A DNA stretch of 64,000 bases, from the NCBI GenBank assembly GCA_030390025.1, contig CM059432.1, positions 27,344,001 to 27,408,000 on the forward strand. Direction: 5' to 3'. Below are positions 228 through 64,000 of this stretch, in pieces. Within the stretch, counting starts at the first letter, position 1. Each line of letters starts with the position of its first letter. The stretch is from Squalus acanthias (lineage: Eukaryota). Both the position numbers and the translations under genes were made by a program. The notes beneath the pieces are model-generated. The model saw only the letters and a program-made list of their open reading frames with translations. It had not been told where the DNA came from and ran no database searches.

Positions 228-773
228 CCAATGAAGTACTTTTGAAGTAGAAGCAGAAAATGTTGGAAATACTCAGCAGGTCAGGCAGCATCCGTGGAGA
301 GAGAACCAAAGTTAATGTTAACTCTGTTTTTCTCTCTCCACAGATGCTGCCTAACCTGCTGAGTACTTGCCAGCATTTTCTGTTTTTATTTCAGATTTCC
401 AGCATCCGCAGTATTTTGCTTAGGTACTATTGAAGTGTAGTCACTGTTGTAATGTAGGAAACAGGGCAGTCAATTTATATACGACCACATAATTTTTTTT
501 GTGATGTTGCTTGAGCGACAAATATTGGCCAGGACACCAGGGAGAATTCCCCTGCTCCTTCTTCGAATAGTGCCATGGTATCCTTTACGTCCACCTGAGA
601 GGGCAGATGGGGCCTCAGTTTAACGTCTCATCCGAAAGGCAGCGTCTCAGACAGAGTAGCACTCCCTCAGTGCTATGCTGAAGTGCCAGCCTAGATTATG
701 AGCTCAAGTCCCTGGAGTGGGACTTGAACCTTCTGACTCAAAGGCGAGAGTACTACCACTGAGCCAGGGCTAA
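228..773 (-). mobile_element. tRNA-derived Deu-domain SINE (SacSINE1/AmnSINE1-like), split by a PLE fold-back
   Basis: Reverse complement of the intact copy at 59664-60115. Confidence 0.8.
249..421. mobile_element. Penelope-like pLTR fold-back remnant (family 2)
   Basis: Inverted arms cagaaaatgttggaaatactcagcaggtcaggcagcatc / gatgctgcctaacctgctgagtacttgccagcattttctg. Flanked by a 15-bp duplication aagtacttttgaagt (234-248) / aggtactattgaagt (422-436). Matches the termini of the PLE at 47981-53048. Confidence 0.75.
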
Positions 774-832
774 CAGAGGTGCTTTTATATTGAAGGAGTG
801 CAGCCTAAACATCCTATTGGATTCTCCAGATA

Positions 833-1183
833 ACTGGCTCACTGGTAGCACACTTGGCTCTGAGTCAGAAGGGTTGTGGGTTCAAGTCTCGCTCCAGAGA
901 CTTGAGCACAAAAATTCTAGGCTGACACACCAGTGCAGTACTGAGGGAGTGTTGCATTGTCGGAGGTGCCGTCGTTTTGATGAGATGTGAAACTGAAGCC
1001 CTGATGGACGTAAATGATCCCATAACACTATTTTGAAGAAGAGCAGGGGAATTCTCCTCAGTAACCAAATCACTTGAACAGATTATTTGGTCATTATCAT
1101 ATTGCTGTACGTTGGAGCTTGCTGTGTGCAATATGACTGCTGCGTTTCTAAAGTACAACAGTGACTACACTTGGTTGTAAAGT
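833..1183 (+). mobile_element. Deu-domain tRNA SINE
   Basis: A/B-box-like head tggctcactggtagc...ggttcaagtc; body matches 59664-60115. Confidence 0.8.
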
Positions 1184-2137
1184 CCTTCCTTCCTCCCCCC
1201 CTCCCCCCTCCCTATCGTCTTGATCTTCTTTCTGTTGCAATCTTTTTACATCACCAATTCTCAAATATTATTAACAGATGTGAGGATCTCTGATGAGAGT
1301 GGGAGCGGATTGCTGGCAGTCTGTGCACTGGTTAGATCTTGACAGTATTTTAAATGCAAGTTCTTTTTTCCATTAATACTTTCCCTATAACTTCTGTGAA
1401 GGTCACCATTTATTTAAAGCTGAATTTATTACGTGTGACCACAGCGTAGAGCTTTTAATAGTGGGAATACTTAAGTGAGTGTGACCACACACACAGAGAT
1501 CCCTTATTCTGTATTCTTTGGCCTTTTGTTTAATGACTTTCTTAAAGGGTCATTGCTGTAGAAGGGAGGGTTTCTTCCAAGTTAAAACACCTCCAATGTT
1601 TCACCTATTCCAGTAGAGTTGTTTAAAGAAAGTTGTCTTCCCTTGTTTATCCTTGAGAGCCTTGGGTCCCAGGAAAAATCTTCCTTTCTCTCATTCGCAT
1701 TCCCCACTCCGTTATTTCTTTTTTCTGTTTCCCCTCTCACTTCTTTTTGCTTTCCTTTTTCCTCTGCACCTTTCTTACTCTTCTGGTTCTATATCACACT
1801 ACTTTTTTTTGCACCATGAGCGGGCAACAAGAGGCTACAGCATCAGGGAGAAGCAGTAGCATTGGAAATCAAGCAGAAAGGCAGAGTCATTGGTTTGGAG
1901 CAGCAGATCATTGGGACTAGGGTGAGTGGGAGAGCCACTGAATCAAGCATCGGGACCCAGTCAGATGGAGCGAAGCAATGGTGGGGGACGAGTAGACCAT
2001 AGAATAGGTCGGGAAAAACAGACTGTAGGGCAGGTGGGGAGTAGTAGACAATAGGGAGATAAGCAGACCATAGGGTGGGTAGAGAGGGAGGGAGAAGCAG
2101 AGCAAAGGAGGGGGGGAGAAGCAGAGCAAAGGAGGGG

Positions 2138-2731
2138 TGGACAGGTGGGGGAGATAAGATCAAAGGGTGAATGGACAGGTGGAGGGGAGAAGATCAGAGA
2201 GTACGTGGACAGGTGGGGTGGAGCAGATCAGAGAGTGGGTGGACAGGTGGAGGGGAGAAGGTCATAGGGTGTGTGGACAAGTGGGGTGGAGCAGATCAGA
2301 GAGTGGGTGGACAGGTGGAGGGGAGAAGGTCATAGGGTGCGTGGACAAGGGGGGTGGAGCAGATCAGAGAGTGGGTGGACAGGTGGAGGGGAGAAGATCA
2401 GAGAGTGCATGGACAGGTGGGGTGGAGCAGATCAGAGAGTGGGTGGACAGGTGGAGGGGAGAAGATCAGAGAGTGCATGGACAGGTGGGGTGGAGCAGAT
2501 CAGAGAGTGGGTGGACAGGTGGAGGGGAGAAGATCAGAGAGTGCATGGACAGGTGGGGTGGAGCAGATCAGAGAGTGGGTGGACAGGTGGAGGGGAGAAG
2601 ATCAGAGAGTGCATGGACAGGTGGGGTGGAGCAGATCAGAGAGTGGGTGGACAGGTGGAGGGGAGAAGATCAGAGAGTGCATGGACAGGTGGAGGGGAGA
2701 AGATCAGAGAGTGCATGGACAGGTGGAGGGG
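2138..2731 (+). repeat. Purine-rich 34-bp minisatellite with a 68-bp higher-order A/B period
   Basis: Alternating ggacaggtggggtggagcagatcagagagtgggt and ggacaggtggaggggagaagatcagagagtgcat. Confidence 0.92.
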
Positions 2732-3289
2732 GAGTAATAGCCCAATCTGAGAAAATATAATTTTGAACTTCGGTGTGGGCTGAAAACTGGCAGTAGCAGA
2801 TTGACAGTCCGTATGCAACCTGCCTGACTTCAGTGGGAAGGAATGTAAGCAGACCCTATCGCAATTTAAAAAATGACTGCCCCGAGCCTTTTACATCAAT
2901 CTGAACAGTTGGATTTTTGTAACGTCTCATTCGGAAGACAGCAATTCTAACAGTGCAGCACTCCCTCAGTACTACACTGAAGTGTCAGCACAAATTACAT
3001 GCTAAAGTCATGGCGTGGAACTTGAACCCACAAGCTTGCAACTCAGGGGCAGGAGTGCTACACCACCGAGCCAACCGAAAGACTGAAAAGCTGGGGTAGG
3101 TTCCGTGATAGGGTTGACTTAGCATGGTTGATGGAAGGGGTCGGCATCCTCATGCATTTACAATGAATGCAGCCTTTTGTGTCTTTTTAAAAAAGACTTG
3201 CATTTATATAGTGCCTTTCATGAGCTCAGAATGTCTGAAAGCGCTTTACAGCCAATGAAGCACTTTAGAAGTGTAGCCACTGTAGTAAT

Positions 3290-5849
3290 TTTTTTTTAAT
3301 TAGTTTATGGGATGTGGCCATCGCTGGCAAGGCCAGCATTTATTGCCCATCCCTAATTGCCCTCGAGAAGGTGGTGGTGAGCCGCCTTCTTGAACCGCTG
3401 CAATCCTTGTGGTGATGGTACTCCCACAGTGCTTTTAGGGAGGGAGTTCCAGGATTTTGACCCAGCGACGATGAAGGATCGGCGATATACTTCTAAGTCA
3501 GGATGGTGTGTGACTTGGAGGGTAAGTTGCAGGTGGTGGTGTTCCCATGCGCCTGCTACCCTTGTCCTTCTAGGTGGAAGAGGTCGCAAGTTTGGGAGGT
3601 GCTGCCGAAGAAGCCTTGGCGAGTTGCTGCAGTGCATCTTGTAGATGGTACACACTGCAGCCATGGTACGCCGGTGGTGAAGGGAGTGAATGTTTAAGGT
3701 GGTGGATGGGATGCCAATCAAGCGGGCTGCTTTGTCCTGGATGGTGTCAAGCTTCTTGAGTGTTGTTGGAGCTACACTCATCCAGGCAAGTGGAGAGTAT
3801 TCCAACACACTCCTTACTTGTGCCTTGTAGATGGTGGAAAGGCTTTGGGGAGTCAGGAGGTGAGACACTCGCCGCAGAATACCTAGCCTCTGACTTGCTC
3901 TTGTTGCCACAGTATTTATGTGGCTGGTCCAATTAAGTTTCTGGTCAATGGTGACCCCCAGGATGTTGATGGTGGGGGATTCGGCGATGGTAATGCCATT
4001 GAATGTCATGGGGAGGTGGTTAGACTCTCGCTTGTTGGATATAGTCATTGCCTGGCACTTCTGTGGCGCAAATGTTGCCTGGCAGTTCTCAGCCCAAACC
4101 TGAAAGTCGTCCAGGTCTTGTTGCATACGGGCATGGACTGCTTCATTATCTGAAGAGTTGTGAATGGCGCTGAATACTGTGCAGTCGTCAGCGAACATCC
4201 CAATTTCTGACCTTATGTTGGAGGGAAGGTCATTGATGAAGCAGCTGAACATGATTGGGCCTAGGACACTGCCCTGAGGAACTCATGCAGCGATGACCTG
4301 TGGCTGTGATGATTGACCTTCAACCACCACAACCATCTTCCTTTGTGCTAGGTATGACTCCAGCCAGTGGAGCGTTTCCCCCCCCGATTCTCATTGACTT
4401 CAGTTTTACTAGGGCTCCTTGATGTCAAATGCTGCCTTGATGTCAAGGGCAGTCACTCTCACCTCACCTCTGGAATTCAGCTCCTTTGTCCATGTTTGGA
4501 CCAAGGCTGTAATGAGGTTGGGAGCCGAGTGGTCTTGGCGGAACCCAAACTGGACATCAGTGAGCAGGTTATTGGTGAGTAAGTGCCACTTGATAGCACT
4601 GTTGATGACACCTTCCATCACTTTGCTGATGATTGAGAGTAGACTGATGGGGCGGTAATTGGCCGGGTTGGATTTGTCCTGATTTTTGTGGACAGGACAT
4701 ACCTGGGCAGTTTTCCACATTGTTGGATAGATGCCAGTGTTGTAGCTGTACTGGAACAGCTTGGCTAGAGGCGCGGCTAGTTATGGCGAACAAGTCTTCA
4801 GCACGATAGCCGGGATGTTGTCGGGCCCATTGCCTTTGCTGTATCCAGTGCGCTCAGCCATTTCTTGTTATCACATGGAGTGAATCGAATTGGCTGAAGA
4901 CTGGCTTCTGTGATGGTGGGGACCTCAGGAGTAGGCCTATATGGATCATCCACTCGTCACTTCTGGCTGAAGATGGTTGCAAACGCTTCAGCCTTGTCTT
5001 TTGCACTCAAGTGCTGGGCTCCGTCATCATTGAGGATGGGGATATTCATGGAGCCTCATCCTCCCTTTAGTTGTTTAATGGTCCACCACCATTCACGACT
5101 GGATGTGGCAGGACTGCAGAGCTTTGATCTGATCCGTTGATTGTGGGATCGCTTAGCCCTGTCTATAGCATGCTGCTTCCGCTTTTTAGCATGCATGTAG
5201 TCCTGTTTTGCAGCTTCCCTAGGTTGGCACCTCATTTTTAGGTACACCTGGTGCTATTCCTGGCATGCTCTTCTACACTCCTTATTGAACCAGGGTTGGT
5301 CCCCTGGCTTGATGGTAATGGTAGGGTGAGGGATATACTGGGCCATGAGGTTACAGATTGTGGTGGAATACAATTCTACTACTGTTAATGGCCCACAGCG
5401 CCTCATGGATGCCCAGTTTTGAGCTGCTAGATCTGTCCTGAATCGATCCCATTTAGCAGAGTGGTAGTGCCACACAACACGATGGAGGGTGTCCTCAGTA
5501 TGAAGACGGGACTTCGTCTCCACAATGACTGTGCGGTGGTCACTGCTACCAATACTGTCATGGACAGATGCATCTGCGACAGGTAGATTGGTTCTCTCAC
5601 CACCTGTCGCAGGTCCAGACTGCAGGACTCGGCCAGCTCGGTCAGTAGTGATGTTACCGAGCCACTCTTGGTGATGGACATTGAAGTCCCCCACCCAGAG
5701 TATATTCTGTGCCTTTGCTACTCTCAGTGCTTCTTCCAAGTGGTGTTCAACATGGAGGAGTACTGATTCGTCAGCTGAGGGAGGGCGGTAGGTGGTAATC
5801 AGCAGGAGGTTTCCTTGCCCGTGCTTGACCTGAAGCCATGAGACTTCAT
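3290..5849 (-). mobile_element. 5'-truncated non-LTR retrotransposon (CR1/L2/Jockey group, family B), decayed APE-RT ORF2
   Basis: ORFs carry YRPP/VGDFN/SDH (APE) and NYRPISLLS, QFGFR, FADD (RT). A-rich tail at 3290. Interrupts a SINE (3188-3289 resumes at 5850). Confidence 0.9.
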
Positions 5850-34556: not shown

Positions 34557-35037
34557 TTTGCGTCTGTCTTCACAAAAGAGAGGGACGATGCAGACATTGT
34601 AGTTAAGAAAGAGGTGTGTGAAATATTAGATAGGATGAACATAATGAGAGAGGCAATATTAAGGGGTTTAGCATCTTTGAAAGTAGATAAATTGCCAGGC
34701 CCGGATGAAATGTATCCCAGGCTGTTAAGAAAAGCAAAGGAGGAAATAGCGGAGGCTCTGACCATCATTTTCCAATCCTCTCTGGCTACAGGTGTGGTGC
34801 CAGAGGATTGGAGGACTGCTAACATTGTACCGTTGTTTAAAAAGGTAGAAAGGGATAGACCGAGTAATTACAGGCCAGTCAGCCTAACCTTGGTGGTGGG
34901 AAATTATTGGAAAAAATTCTGAGGGACAATACTAATCGTCATTTAGAAATGATGTGGAGATGCCGGTGTTGGACTGGGGTGGACAAATGTGAGAAGTCGC
35001 ACAACACCAGGTTATAGTCCAACAGCTTTATTTGAAA

Positions 35038-35074
35038 TCACAAGCTTTCGAAGCGCTGCTCCTTCGTCAGGTGA
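35038..35074 (-). ncRNA. Minimal type I hammerhead ribozyme motif
   Basis: Minus strand reads tcac-CTGACGA-a-ggagc-agc-gcttc-GAAA-gctt-gtga. Stem I tcac/gtga, stem II, palindromic AGCT stem III. Confidence 0.75.
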
Positions 35075-35134
35075 AGTGAAGAGATGCATATGTTCTCTGA
35101 CTATATATGCTGTGCCTATATGCATCTCTTCACT

Positions 35135-35171
35135 TCACCTGACGAAGGAGCAGCGCTCCGAAAGCTTGAGA
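35135..35171 (+). ncRNA. Minimal type I hammerhead ribozyme motif (stem I mismatch)
   Basis: tcac-CTGACGA-a-ggagc-agc-gctcc-GAAA-gctt-gaga. Confidence 0.68.
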
Positions 35172-35870
35172 TTTCAAATAAAGCTGTTGGACTATAACCT
35201 GGTGTTGTGCGACTTCTCACATTTGTCATTTAGAAAGGCACAGATTAATCAAGGACAGTCAGCATGGATTTGTTAAGGGTAGGTCGTGTCTGACTAACTT
35301 GATTGCATTTTTTGAGGAGGTAACAAAGAAGGTTGGTGAGGGTAGCACGTTTGATGTAGTCTACATAGATTTTAGCAGGGCTTTTGACAAGGACCCATAC
35401 GGCAGACTGGTCAGAAAAGTAAAAGCCCTGGGATCCAAGGGAAAGTGATAAGTTGCATCCAAAATTGGCTCAGTGGCAGGAAGCAAAGGGTCATGGTCGA
35501 CGGGTGTTTTTGTGACTGGAAGGCTGTTTCCAGTGGGGTGCCACAGGGCTCAGTACTAGTTCCTTTGCTTTTTGTGGTATATATCAATAGACTTTAATGT
35601 AGGTGGCATGATTAAATAGTTTGCAGATGATACACAAATTGACCGTGTGGTTGATAGAGAGGAAGAAAGCTGTAGACTGCAGGAAGATATCAAAGGACTG
35701 GTGATATCAAAGGACTGGTCAGGTGGGCAGAAAAGTGGCAAATGAAATTCAATCTGGAGACGTCTGATGTAATGCATTTGGAGAGGGCTAACAAGGCAAA
35801 GGAATACACAATTAATGGTAGGAGACTGAGAAATGTAGAGGAACAGCAGGACCTTGTAGTGCATTTGGCG

Positions 35871-55304: not shown

Positions 55305-55498
55305 AAGCTGCAAAGTGAGAAAAAGCCAACTAATATCACTACCTTGATGAAAGAACTATTTGAGCTGTTTCCGGGAGACAGCATGTTCATGAACCAGGGA
55401 CCAAACAGATGTAGGACGTGTGCTGTAGTAGGGAATTCTGGGAATTTAAAAGGATCCAATTACGGACCATCAATTGACTCTAATTATTTTGTCATGAG
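55305..55498 (+). CDS. ST3GAL1: ST3GAL1-like coding exon 2 (start of sialylmotif L)
   Basis: Polypyrimidine tract then ATAG| acceptor. Translates KLQSEKKPTNITTLMKELFELFPGDSMFMNQGPNRCRTCAVVGNSGNLKGSNYGPSIDSNYFVM(R). Donor AG|GTAAGT; 194 nt, phase 0 to 2. Not in the ORF track. Confidence 0.95.
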
Positions 55499-55775
55499 GT
55501 AAGTCACCTGGTGCTAACAGTAGTGTGTTGCCTGCCTATTAGAGGAGATGAAAGAGGCTAGTTCAGAACTCAAATAAAATAGTGCTAATGATGCCATGCC
55601 TGCAGCTAAAATTTCTCAAACCACTGTGCGATACTTTTTATTTCCTTAATATCAGCACCTAAAGGAGAGTAGGAGAGAAATTGGAGGGAAGATAAAAAGT
55701 TCACAAACCTCTTTGTAAGTTGAACCCAAAGCTCAATTTCTACCCAAAGGGAACATACATCATAATAGAGTCATA

Positions 55776-56517: not shown

Positions 56518-57328
56518 ATAGAGTCATTACGGCACAGAAGGAGGCCATTCGGCCCATTGAGTCTGTGCCAGCTCTCTGTAGAGCAATCCAGTCAGTCCCA
56601 TTCCCCTGCTCTATCCCCGTAGCCCTGCAAGTTTCTTTTCCTCAAGTGCCTATCCAATTTCCTTTTGAAATCATTGAACGTCTCCGCTTCACCACCCTTG
56701 TCGGCAGCGAGTTCCAGGTCATTACCACTCGCTGCGTAAAAAAGTTCTTCCTCACATCCCCCCCTGTATCTCTTGCCCAAACCCTTAAAATCTGTGTCCC
56801 CTAGTCCTTGTACCATCAGCTAATGGGAACAGTCTTTCTCTGTCTACCTTATCCAAACCCGTCATAATCTTGTACACCTCCATCAAATCTCCCCTCAACC
56901 TCATTTGCTCCAAGGAGAACAACCCCAGCTTCTCCAACCTAACCTTGTAGCTAAAATCCCTCATCCCTGGAACCATTCTGGTAAATCTCCTCTGCAACCG
57001 CTCAAGGACCTTCACATCCTTCCTAAAGTGTGGTGACCAGAACTGGACGCAATACTTTAGTTGTGGCCTAACCAGAGCTTTATAAAGGTTCAGCATATCT
57101 TCCCTGCTTTTGTACTCAATACCTCTATTTATGAAGCCCAAGATCCTATATGCTTTGCTAATTAATCTCTCAATATGTCCTGCCACCTTCAAAGATCTAT
57201 GCACATGAACGCCCAGGTTCCTCTGTCCCTGCACACTCTTTAGAACTGTGCCATTAAGTCTATATTGCCTCTCCCCATCCCTTCTGCCAAAATGCATCAC
57301 CTCACACTTCTTTGTATTAAATTCCATA
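56518..57328 (-). mobile_element. CR1 3' fragment
   Basis: KCEVMHFG...RPQLKYCVQFWSP...RLRGDL. Confidence 0.9.
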
Positions 57329-59221: not shown

Positions 59222-59401
59222 GATGAATCGGGCAAGGACCACTGGCTACGAGGGGGACGTGGGCAGTAAAACCACGCATCACTTCATGTACCCTGAAAGT
59301 GCTCAGAACCTCGCAGACAATGTGTCCTTGGTTCTGATCCCATTTAAAATATTGGACATGCAGTGGCTAGTGAGCGCTTTTACAACGGGCAACATCACCC
59401 G
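59222..59401 (+). CDS. ST3GAL1: ST3GAL1-like coding exon 3 (end of sialylmotif L)
   Basis: Acceptor CATAG|G. Translates [59 protein letters not shown](R). Donor CG|GTGAGT; 180 nt, phase 2 to 2. Confidence 0.95.
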
Positions 59402-59663
59402 GTGAGTCAATAGGTAAAACACATAAACAGACAGTAACTCCATGATGGTCAATTTCCCTCCATATTTTGTTTTACAATTTTTTCCCTTTCCTGCTCTGCT
59501 ATCTTGAAGGCATAGACTCACTCTGGGGTACAGCTTCAAATGGACCTGCAGCACTTCCATATCTCACCTAGGTACCCATCCTCCATGTGAGCCTAGACAA
59601 GGGATTTCTAGGCTTTTGTCCACATGGGCCGTAAAGGGATATATAATATTGGTCTGTGACAGT

Positions 59664-60468: not shown

Positions 60469-62716
60469 GTGAGTTGGAATTTTGTTTTCTGTATTTAGTT
60501 GGAAAGGGTCAATGTTGAGGTACAGGTGGAAGATCTTTGGTGGCTGTTTGAGGCGGTATTTATATTACAGTTGTAACATTTCCACGAACACTGAAGTTGT
60601 AGTGCCCGACCGGACTCCAGAGCAATGCTAAATGAGACATCTTGAAATAAGTCAGATCAAGGCCTGATTTTGAATGTATTATTGGTCCAAAAATCAAAAT
60701 GCTTTTTACTGACACTACAGTTAAAGCTAGCCTGAGAGTGTATCATGAGTGGGGACTGGTTGAGAATATGTGGTTGTGGGGTCGGGGGGGAATGAATATT
60801 CTATAAGAAGGAAAAGATCATTGAACACCTATTGTATGGGTCAGTCGTGAGACTTGTTGTGGAGTGGATGACTGAGCATTTCTGATGATCTATAGATGTG
60901 GTGTTGAGTGTGTGTGGGAAGGGCTGAGTATCTGTGACATGACGATTGGTGGGTGGTTAAAGGTCTATATTGATATTGAAAAATTTGAGAGTCTTTGGAT
61001 GATAAAAGAAGACTCGTGTGGAGCATAAACACAGGCACAGACCAGTTGGGCTGAATGGCCTGTTTCTGTGCTGTAAATTCTATGTAATTCTATTCTAAAG
61101 AATGTTAAGCGTCTGTAGTGGTTGCATGGTGTTTAGTTGAGAATCGGTGGGGAAAGGTGAATGGTTTGTGATCTCTGTGGAGCGTGCAGAATAGATGACC
61201 TGTAGTTGAATTGGTTTAGGCTCTGTGGTGAGAGTTGGGTAGTACAGGGTTCACGATAAAGGCTTGCTTGGTATTTGGCTGGGATCTTTTCATTTCCGTG
61301 GGATATACTGACCCATTTCCCACATGGAGGCATCCGTAGTTTTTTTTATTCATTCACGGGATGTGGCTGTCGCTGGCAAGGCCAGCATTTATTGCCCATC
61401 CTTAATAAAGTGCCTTTAATATCCATGTAGATATAGCTGTTTTCCCATGTGAGATTCCCATGCCTGGTCAAAGCAGAGATGAGAGCATAGCCTAATATTG
61501 ATGTTAGATGACACACCGGTGCTGTTCACGGGTTAGAGAGCAGTAATAGTGAGATTGCAGTCTGCTGGGCAGGTTCCAATTAGATTTTGCACAATGCCAA
61601 ATTATTGTTCTCAGGAAATGGCTTCTTGGTGCCACAGAAATGAAAATATGCTTTAAACTTGTTGAAGTCACTATTGCCAACATAACATATGACTAGTTCA
61701 ACAGCACAACATATCCCGTGGTTCTCAATCTACAATGTGTGGTGCATTGCTAAACCTTATTCAAACAAAAAAAGCATTGTTGCAGCGGCTGTGTCTAGGT
61801 TCCGAATAGAACTGCTGCATAGTTGATTACAAAGCTAGAAAGCTATTTATTTCTAAAATAAGTACTGGATTCAGTGATCCCCAGCACTGCAAGCGGACTA
61901 GCAAGAGCAAGAAGAAGCTGCTGTCAGGTCAGGTACTTTGCAAGGCTTACCAGCCGGTCCTAGCAGTATACGACACATTGCGGGTAGTTTTGACTTGGGG
62001 TGATAGTGTAATAGAAGATATCTGATCAGACGCCTGTTATACATTGAGTCATAGAGTCATAACGGCTCAGAAAGAGGCCATTCGGCCCATCGAGTCCGTG
62101 CCGGCTCTCTGTAGAGCAATCCAGTCAGTCCCATTCCCCCGCTCTATCCCCGTAGCCCTGCAAGTTTATTTCCCTCAAGTACCTATCCAGTCTCCCCTTG
62201 AAAACATTGAGTATCTCCGCTTCCACCACTTCCGTTGGCAGCGAATTCCAGGTCATCACCACTTGCTGCGTAAAAAAGTTTTTCCTCACGTCCCCCCTGT
62301 ATCTCTTGCCCAAAACCTTAAATCTGTGTCCCCTAGTCCTTGTACCATCAACTACTGGGAACAGCCTTTCCCCGTCTCGCCTATCCAAACCCGTCATAAT
62401 CTTGTACACCTCTATCAAGTCGCCCCTCAACCTCCTTTGCTCTAATGAAAATAAATCCAGCTTCTCCAACCTGTCCTTGTAGCTAAGATCCCCCATCCCC
62501 GGAACCATTCAGGTAAATCTCCTCTGCACCCTCTCAAGGGCCTTCACATCCTTCTTAAAGTGTGGTGACCAGAACTGGATGCAATACTCCAGTTGTGGCC
62601 TAACCAGCGCTTTATAAAGGTTCAGCATAACTTCTCTACTTTTGTACTCAATACCTCTATTTATGAATGAGAAGTCACACAACACCAGGTTATAGTCCAA
62701 CAGATTTATTTAAAAT

Positions 62717-62752
62717 TACAAGCTTTCGGAGCTGTCGCTCCTTCTTCAGGTA
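62717..62752 (-). ncRNA. Minimal type I hammerhead ribozyme motif (mirror copy)
   Basis: Exact reverse complement of 62787-62822. Confidence 0.75.
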
Positions 62753-62786
62753 GGGTAGCTGTGAGAGAATTCTCTCACAGCTACCC

Positions 62787-62822
62787 TACCTGAAGAAGGA
62801 GCGACAGCTCCGAAAGCTTGTA
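62787..62822 (+). ncRNA. Minimal type I hammerhead ribozyme motif
   Basis: tac-CTGAAGA-a-ggagc-gaca-gctcc-GAAA-gctt-gta. Confidence 0.75.
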
Positions 62823-64000
62823 ATTTTAAATAAATCTGTTGGACTATAACCTGGTGTTGTGCGACTTCTCATTTTTGTCCACCCCAGTCCAACGCCGGCA
62901 TCTCCACATCATGACCTCTATTTATGAAGCCTAAGATCCCATATGCTTTGTTAACCACTCTTTCAATATGTCCTGCCACCTTCAGGGACCTATGCACAAT
63001 AACTCCCAGGTCCCTCTGTCCCTGCACACTCTTTAAAACTGTGCCATTAAGTGTATATTGCCTCTCCCTGTTCCTTCTGCCAAAATGCATCACCTCACAC
63101 TTCTCTGTATTAAATTCCATCTGCCACTTGTCTGCCCATTTTACTAGTCTTTCTATGTCCTGTTGCAGTCGATTGGTATCATCATCACTGTTTGCCACAC
63201 CCCCAAGTTTGGTGTCATCGACAAATTTAGAAATTCTACTCTGCATTCCAATATCCAGGTCATTTATATATATCAAAAAAAGCAGTGGCCCCAGCACTGA
63301 CCCTTGGGGAACACCACTGACTACCATCCTCCAGTCTGAAAAACAGCCATTTACCACAACTCACTGTTTTCTGTCCTTAAGCCAATTCCATATCCAATCT
63401 GCCACTGACCCACCTATTCCGTGAGCCTCAATTTTGTTAACCAGCCTTCTATGTTGTACTTTGTCAAACGCCTTCTGAAAATCCATGTAGACAACATCCA
63501 TTGCATTCCCTTCATCAATCCTCTCTGTTACTTCATCAAAAAATTCAATTAGATTAGTCAAACACGATCTGCCTTTTACAAATCCGTGTTGGCGCTCCTT
63601 AATTAGCTTAAACCTCTCCAAGTGCCCGTTAATTTTTTCCTTGATTATAGTTTCTAAAACTTTACCCACCACTGATGTTAAACTGACCGGCCTGTAGTTA
63701 CTAGGATTGTCCTTACACCCTATTTTGAACAATGGTGTCACATTTGCCACTTTCCAATCCATAGGCACCTCCCCCGCATCTAGGGAAGTTTAGAAAATTA
63801 TGGCAAGCCCTTTCGCTATCTCCTCCCCCAGTTCCCTTAGCAACCTGGGATGCAAGCCACCTGGACCAGGCGACTTGTCCACTCTAAGCATAGCCAGCCT
63901 TTCTAGTACATCCTGTCTATCAATTTTCACCCCTTCCATTGCTTCTAGCTTTTCCACTTCTACCGATATTTTGTCAGCATCCACCTCCTTAGTAAACACC

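Follow-up and report, generated by a model that had tools for sequence, protein, structure and literature searches.

A palindromic insertion in the genome of Squalus acanthias as a truncated, inverted copy of an abundant Penelope-like element

In the excerpts of PMC8557442 used here, EN+ Penelope-like elements (PLEs) are described as inserting with an inverted 5'-truncated copy and a tail of 30-40 nt, and the portion of PMC3846280 at hand describes palindromes at inverted PLE junctions. The same part of PMC8557442 describes as undefined the way in which PLEs make these inverted ends and tails. Metazoan PLEs carry hammerhead motifs in pairs on opposite strands, 100-700 bp apart, according to the excerpted text of PMC4209133. 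For the anole PLE Poseidon in vitro, the available sections of PMC11167929 report that both target strands are cut and extended, that two RT start sites bound the tail, that there is no homology at the start site and that the hammerhead is dispensable for insertion.

The window analysed here is a 64,000-nt stretch of the S. acanthias genome (assembly GCA_030390025.1, CM059432.1, positions 27,344,001 to 27,408,000, forward strand), and a 208-bp palindrome lies towards its right end. I regard this insertion, with a probability of roughly 0.9, as a 5'-truncated, 5'-inverted copy of a young and abundant PLE, which probably formed in a single event, with RT primed from both nicked strands; that it is a PLE insertion product is close to certain. 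Its parts and surroundings are as follows (TSD, target-site duplication).

59223..59402, + strand: upstream sialyltransferase exon (PF00777); the intron after it, about 20 kb long, holds the insertion
62040..64000, - strand: host, an older LINE remnant broken by the insertion, with RVT_1 matches and paralogues in the window
62653..62667, + strand: left TSD copy, 15 bp, single-copy in the LINE paralogue at 57121-57135; its last 2 nt double as the outermost paired bases of the inverted arm
62666..62769, - strand: inverted pLTR arm, element positions 41-144 from the 3' end, without tail, with one CpG-type change
62717..62752, - strand: the hammerhead motif within the inverted arm
62769..62770, no strand: spacer-less junction at a self-complementary 2-nt microhomology, AT, already in the parent element
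62770..62873, + strand: forward pLTR arm; with the tail (144 nt) identical to 40/40 scored genomic copies
62787..62822, + strand: minimal type I hammerhead motif, sense copy, by sequence motif after the descriptor in the available text of PMC4209133
62874..62913, + strand: tail, 40 nt, terminating at the ATG that opens the element ORF in tandem copies
62914..62928, + strand: right TSD copy; its first 9 nt equal the element ORF start (microhomology)

The architecture of the insertion is already in print, and the window locus is a further copy of a known kind. As in the EN+ PLEs of the excerpted PMC8557442 and PMC3846280, there is 5' truncation, an adjoining inverted copy without a tail, a one-sided tail, a short TSD, a palindromic inverted junction and a pLTR hammerhead. 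Unlike the EN+ PLE examples in those excerpts, only pLTR ends are left at the window locus. The tail ends at the ORF's ATG here whereas the rotifer PLE pLTR, in the text available, takes in 12 codons, and the commonest TSD length is 12 nt here against 8-10 in the rotifer examples given there.

The two arms (62666-62769 and 62770-62873, 104 nt each, spacer 0 nt) differ at a single position, where the C at 62862 faces a mismatched base at 62677. Because the right arm is identical to other genomic copies, the change is assigned to the left arm, where it falls at a CpG. The 15-nt exact repeat at 62653-62667 and 62914-62928 occurs once in a paralogue of the host LINE inside the window (57121-57135) and is therefore a true target duplication. 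The left arm's outer 2 nt are also the last 2 nt of the TSD, and the first 9 nt of the TSD match the element's own sequence directly after its start codon. A sequence-only reading had described the spacer-less palindrome with one mismatch, a tail of about 40 nt on one side and an exact 15-bp TSD, and all three descriptions are accurate. Sequencing reads and assemblies are known to contain perfect palindromes as artefacts, and a palindrome could also arise after insertion by recombination or repair. Either origin is exceedingly improbable here, given the exact TSD with its single-copy site in the paralogue, the CpG-type difference between the arms, the tail on one side and the recurrence of this anatomy at many loci.

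An older LINE, which I take to be CR1-like, is broken up by the insertion; its RVT_1 matches, 62914-63360 and 63364-63789, are on the - strand. The sequence-only reading had overlooked this host. Its placement of the palindrome in a sialyltransferase intron was right: PF00777 exons lie on both sides on the + strand, at window 55320-55499 and 59223-59402 and, past the window, at C8:27,423,513 and 27,426,960. Within the inverted arm, 62749-62757 (+) reads CAG/GTAGGG on the host sense strand, a splice-donor-like sequence predicted to be buried in the hairpin. The window also contains a second inverted PLE stump at 34940-35237, of an older subfamily, in minus orientation and likewise inside a LINE, with a tail, a central spacer, a duplicated target of about 10 nt and a hammerhead with a compensatory stem I pair. 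Three hammerhead-like motifs of another type (CTGACGA ... GAAACGT) occur at window 51878 (-), 52951 (+) and 54731 (-), and probably belong to another PLE family.

A 49-nt pattern for the element end has 5,299 exact matches genome-wide, and the right arm with its tail (144 nt) is identical in 40/40 scored candidates out of 816. Upstream of these 144 nt, most of the 30 loci inspected run on into a retroelement. As judged from sequence, the right arm and tail are the 3' end (a pLTR with a minimal hammerhead motif) of a Neptune-type PLE. One locus, L119, holds a partial tandem. Its open frame, 892 aa long counted from Met, has an RVT_1 match and the motifs YIDD, a C-x4-C-x2-C linker at aa 808 and VVY..C-x3-C..YIG. 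Pfam gave no GIY-YIG match on the C-terminal third of this ORF, and the call of a GIY-YIG endonuclease follows from the motifs read in L119 together with annotated homologues: relatives carry PF00078, many also PF01541, and the closest are shark proteins at 79-92%. By these motifs, the L119 parent has the single ORF with RT and GIY-YIG-type parts and the CCHH-type motifs of EN+ PLEs. The available part of PMC8557442 gives a CX2-5CxxC linker between RT and EN for the Neptune clade; the family would be Neptune-type by this linker, a feature also found in Nematis. On its 3' side the element terminates with the ATG that starts its own ORF, partial-tandem junctions that define the pLTR occur in L119, L015 and L038, and a 5' truncation series is present. 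L119 also pairs its uninterrupted ORF in partial tandem, at 3639-5732 (+), with a long inverted copy at 645-3488 (-). With that uninterrupted ORF the family looks recently active; the window copy, which lacks an ORF, is probably dead. The earlier assignment of the palindrome to PLEs with minimal hammerheads stands.

The motif itself, CTGAAGA-stem II-GAAA-GCTT-GTA, is found at 62790 (+) and 62749 (-), one in each arm as had been noticed from the letters. The sense copy comprises stem I TAC/GTA, the core CTGAAGA, an extra A, a 5-bp stem II, GAAA and a palindromic AGCT stem III, so that the core boxes, stems I and II and the palindromic stem III of the minimal PLE hammerhead are all present, and cleavage is predicted between 62819 and 62820. 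It resembles the minimal PLE hammerheads in the excerpted PMC4209133 in its type I core, the extra base between 9 and 10.1, G10.1-C11.1 and the palindromic 15.2-16.2, and departs from the description there in having a stem I of 3-4 bp, a stem II of 5 bp, motifs about 35 nt apart and U at the predicted cut site. Across 27 hammerhead haplotypes, which were picked by core pattern and are mutually related, stems I and II are kept (95.9% of cells paired), with one compensatory pair in stem I (4 sequences) and G-U changes at 4 pairs. The sequence-only reading had suggested a check against the Rfam hammerhead models. Neither the palindrome nor the sense arm gave a hammerhead match at E<=10, the only matches being to hairpin (miRNA) models below gathering scores, perhaps since the motif is without the full stem III that the Rfam hammerhead models expect.

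Computed folding favours the hairpin by 65 kcal/mol (-192.7 kcal/mol against -127.8 with the hammerhead forced), and the probability of stem II falls from 0.99 in the sense arm alone to 1e-17 in the hairpin. In host pre-mRNA the hammerhead is accordingly predicted by the folding model to be held inactive within a 104-bp duplex, and the earlier suggestion that about 104 bp of dsRNA would mask the ribozyme holds as computed. The transcript of each strand carries just one sense hammerhead. The further sense motif required for dimeric cleavage (PMC4209133, available text) cannot come from a head-to-head pair. The hammerhead is presumably a passenger in this insertion. The hairpin might instead have been recruited by the host as a miRNA or siRNA source or as a regulator of sialyltransferase splicing, and its intronic position, the 104 bp of dsRNA it would give and the sub-threshold miRNA-model matches are compatible with this. 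Recruitment is nevertheless very unlikely: the insertion is very young (one change in 248 nt) and is one of an estimated several hundred similar near-perfect palindromes, and any perfect hairpin would give miRNA matches under the gathering scores.

Two copies (L040 and L074) end at the predicted hammerhead cut. Counts of end patterns, which differ in stringency, are 90 for the cut and 53, 43 and 103 for positions 93, 95 and 96, so that the cut stands above the first two of these positions but not above 96 and an excess of ends there is not established. When 30 loci were viewed by eye, about one third had A-rich filler at the junction, and about one third had arms without a tail. A/T-rich filler occurs at the cut-ending junctions of L131, L133, L136, L143, L144, L154 and L156, and looks as if untemplated bases had been added by RT at the RNA end.

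The layout of the family was sampled from the first 100 pattern matches on contig C1, which cover its first 79 Mb and require an intact 49-nt end. An inverted arm, a forward arm, a tail and a TSD make up the family's commonest product, found in 59/100 of these positionally sampled copies when the inverted arm is directly joined and starts 28-50 nt from the 3' end. The forward arm is at most 250 nt in 49/100. The sequence-only reading had offered, as one option, an extreme fold-back product of PLE integration; this option is supported, except that with a short forward arm in about half of the copies the window product is not extreme. In 70/70 inverted copies, a set filtered to 28-50, the distance from the 3' end to the start of the inverted arm is 32-46 nt. 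A TSD was found in 67/70 (12 nt in 31, 12-14 nt in 59) and was absent in 3/70; the TSD and microhomology counts include 17 of the loci L001-L030, a set that is skewed to copies of at least 144 nt and to the window haplotype and was excluded from the permutation tests. Among the first 53 inverted copies the spacer is zero in 3 and 1 nt in 5, and 2/53 gave no spacer value. A further zero-spacer case, L167, is centred 613 nt from the end; its arm starts at 26 nt, and the 28-50 filter therefore excludes it from the 59. The LINE site hit in the window is also the target at L024 and L101 (3/70), and there appears to be a strong site preference, in part through a match to the element's ORF start. One head-to-head copy, L078 (C1:32122898-32123190), carries a tail on both arms. 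Viewed by target, repeated insertion at the same or near-identical repeat sequences links L024, L101 and window 62653; L002, L003 and L115; L022 and L065; L082, L086 and L114; L042 and L093; and L009, L023 and L033.

The other option raised from the letters was a non-coding, ribozyme-bearing mini-element or retrozyme mobilised by PLE proteins. Animal retrozymes come from pLTRs, and the likeness to the non-LTR retrozymes in the accessible part of 10.64898/2026.07.22.740005 extends to a pLTR-derived, non-coding unit with a hammerhead motif; those retrozymes, however, are families of head-to-tail repeats, whereas the window holds a single head-to-head product. The same 16-nt centre as in the window occurs at 8 loci of similar length, L126 and L127 among them sharing one haplotype, but the 8 loci comprise 7 haplotypes, with 8 different TSDs and arms or left ends of 103-110 nt. 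Five of the 8 haplotypes are identical to copies of at least 400 nt, and the rest differ by 1, 2 and 4. The pairing of haplotype and centre is single: the window's exact 30-nt junction occurs at 1 locus genome-wide while its haplotype (a 54-mer) has 648 matches. No parent flank was seen in the sequence stretches viewed at the same-centre loci, and no tandem direct monomers were found. Two other spacer-less centres are commoner, at 49 and 102 loci, although the three counts come from patterns that vary in length and pick up different subfamilies, and they cannot be compared as rates. In the 11 of these 151 other-centre loci that were inspected, the arms belong to the family and the flanks differ. 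The single junction, the mixed haplotypes, ends and TSDs and the other centres together indicate independent insertion products, and the same-centre copies appear to be just that. The sequence-only reading had held that a different centre in every copy would mark these as one-off products; taken literally that condition fails, as 8 loci share one centre, but those loci carry 7 haplotypes and 8 TSDs. A palindromic mini-element or retrozyme, for which there is no fixed unit, shared descent or head-to-tail repeat, is thus largely ruled out and highly improbable.

The statistics of the junctions bear on how such insertions are made. Arm ends lie at most 10 nt apart in 19/59 copies (null mean 3.5, maximum 13 in 20,000 permutations), and among the longer copies they lie within 25 nt in 9/31 (null 2.8). 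They are more than 25 nt apart in 29/59, so common stopping is not the rule. The two arms are within one difference of each other in 32/34 (null 5.4). Of the two arms, the inverted one extends further in 33/59 and the forward one in 14/59. Microhomology averages 2.34 nt at the tail junction against 0.82 in shuffled controls, and 1.70 nt at the inverted junction against 0.99 (n=64, after 3 copies with a TSD below 11 nt were dropped), excesses that may be inflated against the null by a TSD finder that maximises repeat length and permits overlap. In the window the values are 9 nt and 2 nt, respectively. All four zero-spacer centres examined (4/4) sit on natural palindromes of 2-4 nt, a length that leaves no room for a hairpin loop. 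The interval 119-138 nt from the 3' end collects 13 forward and 10 inverted arm ends, whereas the 20-nt bins next to it have 3-6. This pile-up lies directly upstream of the hammerhead and downstream of motifs which, against the promoter consensus, I take to be TATA-like and Inr-like; the window centre (144) is outside it. These motifs, at 165 and 137 and 28 nt apart, were seen by eye in L001 and other long copies, in four haplotypes.

Integration with priming from both strands would proceed as follows. The endonuclease would make staggered nicks about 12 nt apart, longer TSDs such as the 15 nt here presumably arising from chance or primer matches. The bottom-strand end would pair with the RNA at the AUG (a 9-nt match here) and copy the tail and then the arm, and the top-strand end would pair about 40 nt upstream in a U-run (2 nt here) and copy the arm again, inverted. 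Both cDNAs would halt near one position, probably since the same RNA molecule is their template, and their ends would then anneal through the 2-nt palindrome AT, followed by fill-in. The shared haplotype, the correlated arm ends and the microhomology at both target junctions fit two-strand priming on one RNA. As the inverted arm is often the longer one (33/59), it cannot in general have been copied from cDNA primed at the tail and must be primed on RNA from the top strand. On the evidence of genomic end products, the single-RNA, two-primer step is somewhat favoured; a shared arm haplotype would also be expected if two RNAs came from a single active master or if one cDNA copied itself. In LINE-1 twin priming, two nicks prime on one RNA and the inversion junction has short microhomology, while the segment that becomes inverted is another one, further upstream. 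In the present family the inverted part duplicates the forward arm instead, so that strand displacement or a second template is needed.

The mirror arm might alternatively come from one cDNA that folds back and copies itself, or from an antisense transcript that primes itself, as has been proposed for rotifer Penelopes, with the PLE identity unchanged. This would account for the shared arm haplotype (32/34) and for the excess of short loops (27/53 within 25 nt), and palindromes at inverted junctions are read as self-priming on an antisense template in the portion of PMC3846280 consulted. The zero-spacer centres have only 1-2 natural bp per side, however, and a loop would need untemplated bases; nor can snap-back of a tail-primed cDNA yield inverted arms longer than the forward arm (33/59), so a second priming is needed even then. 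Snap-back is on balance unlikely as the whole explanation, and remains a rival for the joining step.

Poseidon offers a close parallel to two-strand priming: as in the available sections of PMC11167929, there would be two internal start sites bounding the tail and extension on both strands, deduced here from genomic copies. Poseidon belongs to another clade, without the linker Zn-finger, and its start sites lie 111-118 nt inside the ORF; inverted arms are not treated in those sections. A search of the literature found no two-primer model for PLEs, and since most subscription papers fell outside its coverage, such a model may be in print. A fuller version of two-strand priming, which I put forward tentatively and at slightly less than even odds, is that the spacer-less palindromes record PLE integration in which each nicked strand uses microhomology to prime on a shared RNA, at sites 40 nt from one another. 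The first cDNA would be displaced by the trailing RT, and both strands would run off at the RNA 5' end, probably a start site just upstream of the hammerhead. The basis for that proposed start site is the arm-end pile-up at 119-138 nt together with the TATA-like and Inr-like motifs.

If this is true, the short palindromes are copies of an mRNA 5' leader, and thousands of young shark copies form a ready data set for the mechanism. The window locus itself is of little weight, being one of thousands of dead stumps. The family is of more use as a test bed for the formation of inverted ends and tails in PLEs. Its junction statistics (a TSD of about 12 nt, two microhomology priming sites, correlated arm ends and palindromic joins of 2-4 nt) give predictions for the in vitro system described in the available part of PMC11167929. 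Finally, the genome holds hundreds of such near-perfect hairpins, some of them intronic, and these could be sources of dsRNA.
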